A DNA stretch of 32,000 bases from Promethearchaeia archaeon. GTDB lineage: Archaea > Asgardarchaeota > Lokiarchaeia > Sigyniarchaeales > SOKP01. Positions 29,205 to 32,000 of this stretch are shown in pieces (within the stretch, counting starts at the first letter, position 1; the number at the start of each line of letters is the position of its first letter). Both the position numbers and the translations under genes were made by a program. The stretch is taken from contig JAWOFX010000061.1 of NCBI GenBank assembly GCA_046497275.1, positions 1 to 32,000 on the forward strand, in the 5' to 3' direction. The notes below the pieces were generated by a model that searched no databases, had not been told where the DNA came from, and worked only from the letters and a program-made list of their open reading frames with translations.

Positions 29205-29840
29205 CTATTTAACTTCTGAATTCACTAATGAGACTGCTTTTTCCACTCTACTTTTAATTTCATCAAAATTCTTCGAAGAGATCAAATCCTTTTTGACTAA
29301 CCAGCTCCCTCCACAAGAAAATACATTTTCGAGTTTAAGATATTCGATTAAAGTTTCATTTCCTACGCCTCCAGTAGGCATAAATTTCACATGTGGATAT
29401 GGTCCCGAAAATGTTTTTAGCATATTTATTCCACCCGATAGATTAGCGGGAAAAAACTTAAAATGATTTAATCCTCTTTCAATGCCCCACTCTATAAAGG
29501 AAGGGGAATTTATTCCTGGGCAAATAACAATATCTTTCTTGATACAATAATCAACCACCGTGGGATTGAACCCAGGAGTTACAATGAATTCAACTCCAGC
29601 TTTTATTGCATCTTTTATTTGTTCAATAGTTAAAATTGTTCCAGCTCCAACTAATAGATTAGGAAATTCCTTTCTTAATCTTAAAATAGAATCTGCGGCT
29701 GCTTTTGTTCGGAAAGTAATTTCTACGATTGGAAGACCGGCATCCATGAGAGTTTTTCCGAGTGGAATCGAATTTTCCGAATCCTCAATAACTGCCACAG
29801 GTACAATTTTTAATTCTGTAATTTTTTTGATAATATTCAT
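29205..29840 (-). CDS. eda: KDPG/KHG aldolase (bacterial Eda type)
   Basis: VEITFRT, VGAGT, FIVTPG, FKFFPA (Schiff-base Lys), FMPTGGV, CGGSWL. Confidence 0.92.
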   Translation of the reverse strand: MNIIKKITELKIVPVAVIEDSENSIPLGKTLMDAGLPIVEITFRTKAAADSILRLRKEFPNLLVGAGTILTIEQIKDAIKAGVEFIVTPGFNPTVVDYCIKKDIVICPGINSPSFIEWGIERGLNHFKFFPANLSGGINMLKTFSGPYPHVKFMPTGGVGNETLIEYLKLENVFSCGGSWLVKKDLISSKNFDEIKSRVEKAVSLVNSEVK

Positions 29841-29914
29841 TTTTCATAGAGATTATTTTAAAAATTTTTTTTAGTTTTTAAAGAAAAGATTTTAGACAAT
29901 TAGAAGTAATATGA

Positions 29915-30172
29915 TTAATATAATTTATAAAAGGAAGGCATATAATATTTACATTTTGAAGGGTTCAGATTTTCAGATTCTTTAGGATATTTTTGAACGA
30001 TTTTACAAGAAGATTTCAATGCATAATCATTTTTTTGAGATCCTTCTGAATCTTCATCTAAGATTTTATCAATGTTTTGGATCATCTTCTCACTATTTTC
30101 TATACACGCTCCACAAGAAGAGTTTTTTATAAAATGTGCACAAGTAAAACATTGAAGTTCATTCTGAGACAT
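29915..30172 (-). CDS. Small Cys-rich hypothetical protein, possibly metal-binding
   Basis: 85 aa with CFTC, CGAC and two further Cys; sole long ORF in its gap. Confidence 0.6.
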   Translation of the reverse strand: MSQNELQCFTCAHFIKNSSCGACIENSEKMIQNIDKILDEDSEGSQKNDYALKSSCKIVQKYPKESENLNPSKCKYYMPSFYKLY

Positions 30173-30461
30173 ATTTTTATATTTATTAATCGAAATTTAA
30201 AATTTATAGTTTTTATCTATAAATATCAAAAGTAATTACAAATTGATAAATTTCAATGAGAGAATTTCAAATCAGAATTAAAAGATTAAGAAAGCTATAA
30301 AAAAATTTTAATAGAGTTTCATAGGAATTCAATCAGAATATAATTTGTAGAAATATAAAATATTATAATTAAAAAATCAAGTTTAGTTTCGAATAAAATA
30401 GAGAAATTTTTAAAATATATAATATTTCAAGATATTAAATAAACTGAATGGATTTATAATC

Positions 30462-30575
30462 ATGAAAATACTTGTAAACATCAATAAGAGCAGCATAATG
30501 CATTCAAATTGGGCGCTCTTAAAATCCTTAAGTTTATTGTTATATCTCTTAAACTTGTTTTTATTATTATTATAA
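30462..30575 (+). CDS. Putative leucine-rich leader peptide (37 aa; alternative start ATG 30498, 25 aa)
   Basis: MKILVNINKSSIMHSNWALLKSLSLLLYLLNLFLLLL*, with 13 Leu in the last 19 codons. It ends 95 nt before the leuA/cimA start. Below the ORF-track cutoff. Confidence 0.5.
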   Translation: MKILVNINKSSIMHSNWALLKSLSLLLYLLNLFLLLL

Positions 30576-30670
30576 AAAACCTTCGGATGTTCTGTAAGGA
30601 TAAAAAGTTCTAATTCCTATGAACAAAAGAAGGTGATAAATATAAATTAATCACAAATAGGTAAATTAAA

Positions 30671-32000
30671 GTGACAGAAAAGGAAAATGAAGTAAATGTT
30701 TCGATGATGATGGGAAAATTGAAGAAAAATCTAAATCTTCCTAAGAAAGCGTATTTCTTTGATACCACTCTTCGCGATGGAGAGCAAACTCCCGGAATTA
30801 GTTTTACTCATGAAGAAAAGCTTTCTATTGCTCAAGCTCTCGATAAATTAGGGATAGATGTTATTGAAGCTGGCTTTCCTGTTATTTCTGAAGGAGATTT
30901 TGCAGCTTGTAAAGATATTGCAAAATTAGGATTGAATTCTGAGGTGATTGGTCTAGCTCGCTTGAAAAAATTAGATATTGATAAAGTAATTGACGCAGAT
31001 ATGGATAGCATCCATGTATTTATTGCCACTTCAGACCTTCATATGGATAAAAAATTGAATATGACACGACAAGAAGTCTTGGATAGTATTGAAAACTATG
31101 TTACCTACTCGAAAGAACATTTTGATACTGTGCTATTTTCTGCTGAAGATGCTACGCGATCTGATTTAGATTTCTTGATAAAAGCGAATCAAATTGCTGT
31201 TGAGAATGGAGCAACTCGTATTAATATCCCAGACACAGTTGGAACCATAAGCCCATACGCGTTTGGATACATTGTAAGAAAAAATTATAACGTATTACCA
31301 AAAAATGTACGAATTGCTGTACACTGTCATAATGATTTTGGGCTTGCAGTTGCTAATACAATAGCTGGATTCGAAAATGGTGCTTCAGAAGCACAAATAA
31401 CGATTATGGGATTAGGGGAACGCGCAGGAAATGCTTCATTTGAAGAGACAGCAATGTCTTTGTGTGCTTTATATCAAATTCCAATGAATATAAATTCCAG
31501 ATTAATTTTCCCAACTGCTAAGCTGGTTGAAAGTTACTGTGGAGGAAAAATTAGAATAGGAAGATTAAAACCATTGATCGGTCAGAATGCATTCGCACAC
31601 GAATCTGGAATCCATGCACATGCTATGATACAAGATGCCAGAGCATACGAGCCAATTACACCTGAATTGATAGGAATTAAACGAACGGACGATGTTGAGC
31701 AAATTATAAAAAATTCGATTAGATTGGGAAAACATTCAGGAGGGCATGCGCTCAAAGCAAAATTAAAAGATTTAGTTATTCAAACTACTGGAGATCAGTT
31801 TAAAAAAATCTTCGAGCATGTGAAAAGTTTTGGAGATAAGGGGCATGAAGTTCAAGAAGAGGATTTTTTAGCAATTGTAAAAGATGTGATGGGGGAATTA
31901 CCGAAAAAGGAGCAATTTGTAATTCTGGATGAACTTACTGTTTTAACAGGATCTGTTACCCCCACTTCTACTGTTCGTTTGAAAATACGAAATAATGGAA
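30671..32000 (+). CDS. leuA: 2-isopropylmalate synthase/(R)-citramalate synthase family (LeuA/CimA), partial at 3' end
   Basis: Missing from the track. Translation from GTG 30671: FDTTLRDGEQTPG, IEAGFP, SAEDATRSD, IPDTVG, VHCHNDFGLAVAN, GLGERAGNA, FAHESGIH, LGKHSG, then the start of a C-terminal regulatory domain. LeuA versus CimA cannot be resolved. Confidence 0.85.
   Translation, partial: MTEKENEVNVSMMMGKLKKNLNLPKKAYFFDTTLRDGEQTPGISFTHEEKLSIAQALDKLGIDVIEAGFPVISEGDFAACKDIAKLGLNSEVIGLARLKKLDIDKVIDADMDSIHVFIATSDLHMDKKLNMTRQEVLDSIENYVTYSKEHFDTVLFSAEDATRSDLDFLIKANQIAVENGATRINIPDTVGTISPYAFGYIVRKNYNVLPKNVRIAVHCHNDFGLAVANTIAGFENGASEAQITIMGLGERAGNASFEETAMSLCALYQIPMNINSRLIFPTAKLVESYCGGKIRIGRLKPLIGQNAFAHESGIHAHAMIQDARAYEPITPELIGIKRTDDVEQIIKNSIRLGKHSGGHALKAKLKDLVIQTTGDQFKKIFEHVKSFGDKGHEVQEEDFLAIVKDVMGELPKKEQFVILDELTVLTGSVTPTSTVRLKIRNNG

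Follow-up and report, generated by a model that had tools for sequence, protein, structure and literature searches.

The question raised by this locus is whether an archaeon may gauge its leucine supply with a ribosome that translates a short, leucine-rich reading frame ahead of leuA. Ribosome-based gauges of amino acids have been described to date in bacteria only, and judged by its sequence the leuA leader of Asgard archaea looks like one. In the literature searched we found no published leader-peptide sensor from archaea. Archaeal attenuation or antitermination was stated not to be known (Blombach et al. 2021), and archaeal attenuation goes unmentioned in a 2026 review of termination signals. 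The window, i.e. the whole stretch of 32,000 nucleotides that was analysed, is the first 32 kb of its contig; for the scans the genome of 3.85 Mb with 30.4% G+C was used.

The profile matches indicate that the gene at 30671 is a LeuA-type 2-isopropylmalate synthase. Its product of 538 amino acids reaches 562.9 bits with the NCBIfam model NF002085, for which the cut-off is 517; it also has matches to the Pfam families HMGL-like and HCS_D2 and to the LeuA_dimer regulatory domain. The gene starts with GTG at 30671 on the forward strand and ends at 32287, beyond the window; the GTG aligns with ATG in the relatives, and the N-terminus is conserved. Since the neighbouring gene downstream lies on the opposite strand, leuA is monocistronic. 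The same genome has two shorter leuA paralogues, both without the regulatory domain. On its other side, the leader shares an intergenic region of 498 nt (17-25% G+C) with a divergent, Cys-rich ORF of 85 amino acids (CxxC...CxxC; 29915-30172, reverse strand) that has no Pfam match. Further along the same contig, 2.8 kb past leuA, a thiamine-diphosphate enzyme resembling the acetolactate synthase large subunit is encoded (35057-36844, forward strand).

The initial annotation had noticed a Leu-rich ORF directly upstream of a gene for leucine synthesis, and this description holds. Among the last 19 codons of the ORF 13 specify Leu (9 TTA, 2 CTC, 2 TTG), the reading frame closes with TTA TTA TTA TTA TAA (30561-30575), and the LeuA-type start lies 95 nt downstream of it. 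Two ATGs had been considered as possible starts, of which the first, at 30462, is favoured by the relatives. A -1 frameshift into the leuA frame could be ruled out, since this frame is closed at 30611-30613. The worry that Leu-rich short ORFs might be common in the AT-rich spacers of this genome proved unfounded. After masking of ORFs of at least 100 amino acids, we ranked the ATG ORFs of 20-99 amino acids, which lie mostly in the remaining 682 kb (n=2,464), by the maximum number of Leu in a window of 19 residues. The leader came first with 13, followed by a runner-up with 11, and it was also at the top in Leu among all 18,075 small ORFs of the genome. The features of the locus are collected in Table 1.

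Table 1. Features of the leuA leader region, listed in the order of their positions in the window.
Feature	Position	Strand	Basis or remark
Promoter-like TATA-type element AAATTTTTAAAA; BRE-like, A-rich bases on its 5' side	30404-30415	+	kept in relatives
Helix P0, 5' strand: 5' UTR of the leader with the weak RBS GGAT	30438-30455	+	minimum free energy (MFE) fold
Leader ORF, 37 codons (MKILVN...LFLLLL, stop)	30462-30575	+	homologues in relatives
Leu-rich sensor window (putative), 13 Leu in 19 codons	30516-30572	+	four TTA at 30561-30572
Helix P0, 3' strand, within the leader ORF (K-S-L-S-L-L codons)	30522-30538	+	pairs with 30438-30455
Leader stop TAA	30573-30575	+	3 nt upstream of the hairpin base
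Conserved hairpin, 56 nt	30579-30634	+	dG -15.1 kcal/mol, z -3.2
A/T-rich spacer with the leuA Shine-Dalgarno AGGT (30659-30662)	30635-30670	+	AGG invariant in alignment A1
leuA, with LeuA_dimer regulatory domain	30671-32000, continuing to 32287	+	profile matches, N-terminus conserved

The relatives that carry the leader belong to the Promethearchaeota (Promethearchaeia), i.e. to the Asgard archaea. A leuA orthologue was found in 28 of 41 related genomes. Two families, f1 and f2, together comprise 22 loci with a short ORF that ends in 4-7 Leu and lies about 80-130 nt upstream of leuA. The leader is missing in five loci, of which f4 contributes three and f2 and f3 one each; their LeuA identities are 58-67%. 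When one genome per species was scanned, the leader was present in all 47 loci of Promethearchaeota for which 500 nt or more of upstream DNA were available; in the same scan, no leader was found at the loci of Hydrothermarchaeota, Hadarchaeota, Methanocella, Bathyarchaeota and Nitrososphaeria. After removal of identical sequences 55 distinct leaders were counted, and the Leu-rich ORF with synonymous variation for which the initial annotation had proposed to search in relatives is thus present in 55 distinct Asgard loci. At one locus (L022) a run of N and a duplicated 5' segment of leuA part the leader and the hairpin from leuA by 297 nt, which is probably an assembly artefact.

In 53 of the 55 loci the leader comprises 26-41 codons (median 36). 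Their peptides share a conserved N-terminus of the type MK(M/T)LQ and always end in the Leu run, and the stop codon (TAA in 40, TAG in 8 and TGA in 7 loci) follows directly after this run or one residue later. An SD-like 4-mer is found at -16 to -4 of the leader ATG in 30 of the 55 loci, compared with 11% of background windows; leaders without such a 4-mer mostly have TGGAT or GTGAT. The retained ATG and length, the SD-like motif, the use of three stop codons and the synonymous exchange of Leu codons all suggest that the leader is translated.

With regard to the composition of the Leu run, we found 7-15 Leu in the last 20 codons of the 22 leaders examined, while Leu makes up 9.7% of the proteome. 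The pooled last 20 residues of these leaders contain 241 L, 15 I, 12 F, 7 V, 3 A and 3 M, which indicates that the conserved trait is Leu as such and not generic hydrophobicity. At homologous Leu positions TTA, TTG, CTT, CTC and CTA replace one another. The share of TTA among Leu codons is 65% over the last 20 codons and about 68% in the terminal runs, compared with 48% in genes, and hence the run does not consist of rare codons. The tract of this genome includes a T5 run, which is not conserved across the 22 terminal runs listed, and leaders of family f2 have CTT CTT CTT in the terminal run.

Directly behind the leader stop we identified a conserved hairpin. It had previously been assumed that only weak pairings such as CCTTC/GAAGG are present at this place and that no strong hairpin follows. 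This turned out to be wrong, as the two segments form the base of the covarying hairpin at 30579-30634. The base stem P1 (30579-84 with 30629-34) is followed by a middle stem (30588-92 with 30621-25) and an apical stem (30597-600 with 30615-18). In all 55 loci the gap between stop and hairpin is 0-6 nt. The hairpin has a length of 40-61 nt (median 55) and a median dG of -19 kcal/mol in these loci, its z against dinucleotide shuffles ranges from -2.2 to -6.8 in 22 loci, and in 51 of the 55 loci it ends 30-41 nt ahead of the leuA start.

The arms of the hairpin vary in sequence and stay complementary, e.g. GCCTTC/GAAGGC, CCCTC/GGGGG, ATCTCTCT/AGAGAGAT and GCCTCTTA/TAAGAGGC. RNAalifold returned no pairs for the MAFFT alignments A1 and A2, because the arms are out of register in these alignments. 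A covariance model was therefore built from five seeds, comprising the Leu run and the hairpin. Among 16 loci aligned to the model, with an alignment that is fitted to the model and sequences that are related to each other, 88.1% of the pairing cells were able to pair, compared with 71.7% after shuffling of partners and 44-57% after sliding. Both sides vary in each of the 19 pairs, with 52 compensatory cells where 16.6 were expected, and none of 500 shuffles reached the observed values. For the search of the genome, a model of the hairpin alone (R1) gave antisense matches too, so that a model of run and hairpin (R2, E<0.008) was used instead. R2 finds a single copy in this genome, at the leuA leader.

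Comparable leaders were not found before 14 candidate leuB, leuC, ilvB-like and cimA-like genes of this genome. Likewise, none of its seven enzymes resembling the acetolactate synthase large subunit has a leader ORF, and none reaches the cut-off of TIGR00118. ARAGORN reported only 13 tRNAs for the genome, with tRNA-Leu(UAA) not among them, and is uninformative in this respect. A genome-wide scan for runs at ORF tails was noisy. On another contig, outside the window, an ORF of 27 codons (C76:2642-2725, reverse strand) ends in EVVVVVLL before its stop. A 58-nt hairpin with a G+C-rich base of 10 bp and a dG of -19.9 lies 5 nt downstream of it, in a layout like that of the leuA leader. The sole ORF behind this hairpin has 45 amino acids and is preceded by a strong RBS (AAAGGAGG); it is not obviously connected with valine.

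A second helix, P0, which the initial annotation had not noted either, lies further upstream and pairs the region of the leader RBS with the middle of the leader. The duplex has a mean z of -2.45 against dinucleotide shuffles, and 40 of 52 loci fall below -1.5. The complementary sequences are specific for individual clades, for example CUAAGGA/UCCCUUAG, AAGAAGGAAA/UUUUCUCUUCUU and ACAAUUCUAUUGG/CAUUAGAAUUGU. P0 and the hairpin behind the stop both covary. The Ser-Leu-Ser/Gly-Leu motif of the peptide is conserved because of the pairing in P0. Once formed, P0 would be expected to close the leader RBS. The idea of a 'one-ribosome cage' bounded by P0 and the hairpin was considered as well and was rejected, since the unpaired gap between them is too variable in the MFE folds.

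The initial annotation had pointed to TATA-like sites at 30435-41 and 30453-59. These are not the conserved ones, as the element that is kept in the relatives lies at 30404-30415. Most relatives have the motif (A)AATTTTTAA about 50-62 nt upstream of the leader ATG, and the promoter-like sequence common to the leaders, AAATTTTTAA, stands at this distance. Judging from the usual archaeal distance between TATA and start, the transcript would begin at about 30436-30440. Across this genome the starts show an enrichment of AGGT, GAGG and GGTG between -14 and -8, and the AGGT of leuA, at -12 to -9, takes the usual position of a Shine-Dalgarno sequence. The hairpin spans -92 to -37 relative to the leuA start. 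As the interval from the hairpin to the Shine-Dalgarno sequence is too short to accommodate a promoter, and this sequence is at its usual position, co-transcription of leader and leuA from the leader promoter appears to be the economical reading of the sequence. A leuA promoter located in either the spacer or the loop of the hairpin was dismissed: TATA-like strings are ubiquitous here, and such a promoter is incompatible with the conserved Shine-Dalgarno sequence at -12 to -9.

Transcripts of leuA were found in 11 metatranscriptome runs from salt lakes. In Logan contigs of the runs X1, X2, X3 and X5, leuA is covered from 30687, 30693, 30708 and 30713 onwards. The stretch 30150-30682 is uncovered in those contigs, which are assembled, and it is AT-rich, so that neither its absence from the RNA nor a transcript start follows. 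The 5'-most ends of the RNA contigs, from four metatranscriptomes of two studies, lie 16-42 nt inside leuA, and the end at 30687 bears an adapter.

A leader of unrelated sequence was found in a second phylum. Of 30 leuA loci of Altiarchaeota, 14-15 (L113-L117, L121-L127, L131, L133 and L140) have a leader that ends in ...NP(I/L/V)x(L)LLLLL(L)RLR(A/E/V) before its stop. Here, too, a covarying hairpin is present, with 35-45 nt, a dG of -15 to -22 and a z of -2.6 to -5.0. It begins 0-5 nt past the Leu run, with the leader stop lying within its 5' arm. Moreover, the 5' end of this leader (GGUUCC) pairs with GGGAACC just upstream of the run. Since a Leu run with an adjacent hairpin is common to both phyla, the shared layout points to a common logic that has arisen twice.

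How might such a leader act on leuA? A scan for terminators gave no sites, and no consistent T-run is found downstream of the hairpin in the relatives. Pairing of the mid-leader or the Leu run with either half of the hairpin was no better than in dinucleotide shuffles, and complementarity between the hairpin halves and the leuA RBS region likewise did not exceed that of shuffles (mean z -0.5 to +0.6 and 21 loci in both cases). For a duplex of the Leu run with the spacer and the leuA Shine-Dalgarno sequence the mean z was 0.11, and one of 21 loci fell below -1.5. As neither a terminator U-tract nor conserved antiterminator or anti-SD pairing was found, the element is not a classical attenuator with a terminator/antiterminator switch. 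A search of 29800-31000 with Rfam cmscan at E up to 10 gave matches at chance level only, with no Leu_leader or other leader family.

We also calculated the cost of opening the Shine-Dalgarno sequence and AUG of leuA. The medians were 3.0 kcal/mol for the free RNA, 2.3 when the stall site was masked and 3.2 under the control mask (n=54, Wilcoxon p 6e-5); the gain from the stall mask is small, with a median of 0.5 kcal/mol, and the 54 loci are phylogenetically non-independent. At the locus studied here the cost falls from 4.1 to 1.6 kcal/mol. When the run of the Altiarchaeota leaders was masked in this way, no gain in RBS opening was obtained for 14 loci.

The comparison with known systems shows which parts of the layout are familiar. 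As in leuL of the enterobacterial leu operon and in the other attenuators trpL, hisL, ilvL and ivbL, a short ORF with codons for the amino acid of the pathway precedes the first committed enzyme, and the leader has its own RBS, which base-pairs with a segment further downstream and is thereby sequestered. In contrast to them, the Asgard leader has no U-tract terminator, no antiterminator and no Rfam match, and its Leu run is located at the extreme C-terminus, followed by the stop and then by one stable hairpin. Termination at hairpins is not known for archaeal RNA polymerase.

For the polycysteine short ORFs of mycobacteria and for ermC/cat, the proposed action is that of a stalled ribosome on RNA structure in its vicinity. 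These systems resemble the Asgard leader in that a run of one residue ends a short ORF and no terminator is involved, and the polycysteine ORFs, which are leaderless, are described as a case of Cys-responsive translational attenuation (bioRxiv 10.1101/834739). However, the structure in these cases sequesters the RBS of the next gene, whereas the Asgard hairpin excludes the leuA RBS. The LEU element of Actinobacteria likewise places a Leu-run leader and a compact, conserved RNA structure before leuA and has no obvious terminator; its base stem is formed by the Leu run with the leuA Shine-Dalgarno sequence, and a pseudoknot is possible (PMC1262725). In this point the Asgard leader differs, as the complementarity between run and RBS is no better than in shuffled sequences (z 0.11). 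Mutation of the Leu codons in the LEU element led to the report that it does not work by classical attenuation (PMC1262725), and a conserved Leu run is thus no proof of function.

In E. coli's tna operon, where tnaC and Rho are the partners, alternative hairpins are unnecessary as well, and a ribosome arrested at the end of the Asgard leader would similarly mask RNA from a termination factor. In that case aCPSF1/FttA would be the factor, and hungry Leu codons would take the place of arrest by a nascent peptide and Trp as the signal. The layout alone fits masking from an aCPSF1/FttA-type factor, with the U-rich run beside the leader stop. The geometry of a short-ORF shunt is also present, with a gap of 0-6 nt, a stem of 40-61 nt and then 30-41 nt to the leuA start.

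Overall, we consider it likely from the comparative evidence that the region 30404-30670 is a cis-acting leader of leuA that gauges the supply of leucyl-tRNA via the translating ribosome. The central proposal of the initial annotation, control of leuA by a leader with Leu codons, is strongly supported by the comparison of 55 loci, while the effector suggested along with it has received no specific support: the U-rich Leu tract might itself be an oligo-U terminator, which is a possibility. In the mechanism that we propose, one promoter would transcribe leader and leuA jointly, and a ribosome would load on the leader RBS during RNA synthesis. P0 would then pair the leader RBS with the mid-leader and limit further loading. 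The ribosome would read 13 Leu codons among the last 19, the final four or more of them consecutive. Since 0-6 nt separate the stop from a stable hairpin, the ribosome would have to open the hairpin base in order to finish. When leucine is scarce, it would be held on the Leu run beside the hairpin; when leucine is plentiful, it would terminate and depart. The occupancy by the ribosome would thus set the output of leuA.

For the last step we prefer, tentatively and by analogy, a parked ribosome that would shield the U-rich run, which is single-stranded, and the hairpin base from cleavage or termination by aCPSF1/FttA, or from 5'-to-3' decay. The exposed RNA would be the OFF state and the parked ribosome the ON state, so that low leucine would lead to more full-length leuA mRNA. 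Precedents for shielding of this kind are tnaC/Rho and the stabilisation of ermC mRNA. Our second choice, to which we give less credit still, is that the stalled ribosome would loosen weak base pairs of the U-rich run with the A-rich spacer, where the leuA RBS is located.

Other explanations have to be weighed against a leucine gauge. The best of them, which we nevertheless regard as improbable, sees an element that acts through RNA only, where P0 and the hairpin would form the site of a regulatory protein or a signal for processing or stability, and the ORF with its Leu codons would be a by-product or of minor importance. Such an element would account for the covariation of both helices, P0 explains the Ser-Leu-Ser-Leu part of the peptide conservation, alternative structures were not found, and the LEU element, for which such a minor role of the ORF has been proposed, offers a precedent (PMC1262725). 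However, neither helix includes the terminal Leu run, which is nevertheless the most conserved feature. It is maintained through synonymous changes, the frame, the start and a stop right after the run are kept with the use of three stop codons, and an unrelated leader with a Leu run precedes leuA in a second phylum.

The ORF might also be an independent gene for a small hydrophobic membrane peptide, with the hairpin as its 3' end or terminator and leuA being expressed separately. It has a promoter-like element and an RBS of its own, and the C-terminal half of the peptide is hydrophobic enough for a membrane helix. Against this, the segment is nearly pure Leu with scant Ile, Val, Phe and Ala, which is unlike membrane helices in an AT-rich genome, and the peptide has no Pfam match. 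In addition, the leader is always tied to leuA at a fixed distance, no T-tract is found downstream of the hairpin, and the space between hairpin and leuA Shine-Dalgarno sequence is too small for a promoter. We judge this explanation to be very unlikely.

We attach just as little weight to a eukaryote-like uORF, where ribosomes would cross the stem base and reinitiate at leuA, or where the uORF would damp leuA without sensing leucine. Plant pararetroviruses use a ribosome shunt via a short ORF and a stem, and the geometry fits, with the stop 0-6 nt before the stem and the leuA start 30-41 nt after it; moreover, the hosts are Asgard archaea. But with reinitiation a shortage of Leu would lower the yield of LeuA, the opposite of what is expected of a biosynthetic gene, leuA has a normal Shine-Dalgarno sequence of its own, and neither the identity of the Leu codons nor the restriction to leuA would be explained. 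Finally, a chance ORF in AT-rich intergenic DNA, although TTA repeats are easily generated in a genome of 30% G+C with TTA as the commonest Leu codon (48%), is refuted by the first rank in Leu among 2,464 ORFs, the fixed geometry in 55 loci and the covariation.

With the leucine gauge as the preferred reading, a more general proposition can be made, which we regard as evenly balanced between true and false: archaea would have ribosome-mediated attenuation in response to amino acids without a terminator/antiterminator switch, it would rely on a Leu run placed directly ahead of a stable hairpin and in Asgard archaea also behind a helix closing the leader RBS, this layout would have originated independently before leuA in Asgard archaea and Altiarchaeota, and the dwell time of the ribosome would be converted to leuA output via cleavage/termination or decay. 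For annotation, a short ORF that contains a homopolymeric amino-acid run, followed by a hairpin and located before biosynthetic genes, may serve as a signature. If the leader responds to leucine, its 55 Asgard and about 15 Altiarchaeota variants would provide a short, defined test case, rich in phylogenetic variation, for the crosstalk of translation with transcription, termination or decay in those prokaryotes that are most closely related to eukaryotes. Leader-peptide stalling as an amino-acid sensor would then not be restricted to bacteria, and such sensing would be able to operate under archaeal, eukaryote-like transcription and in an arrangement other than that of the textbook.
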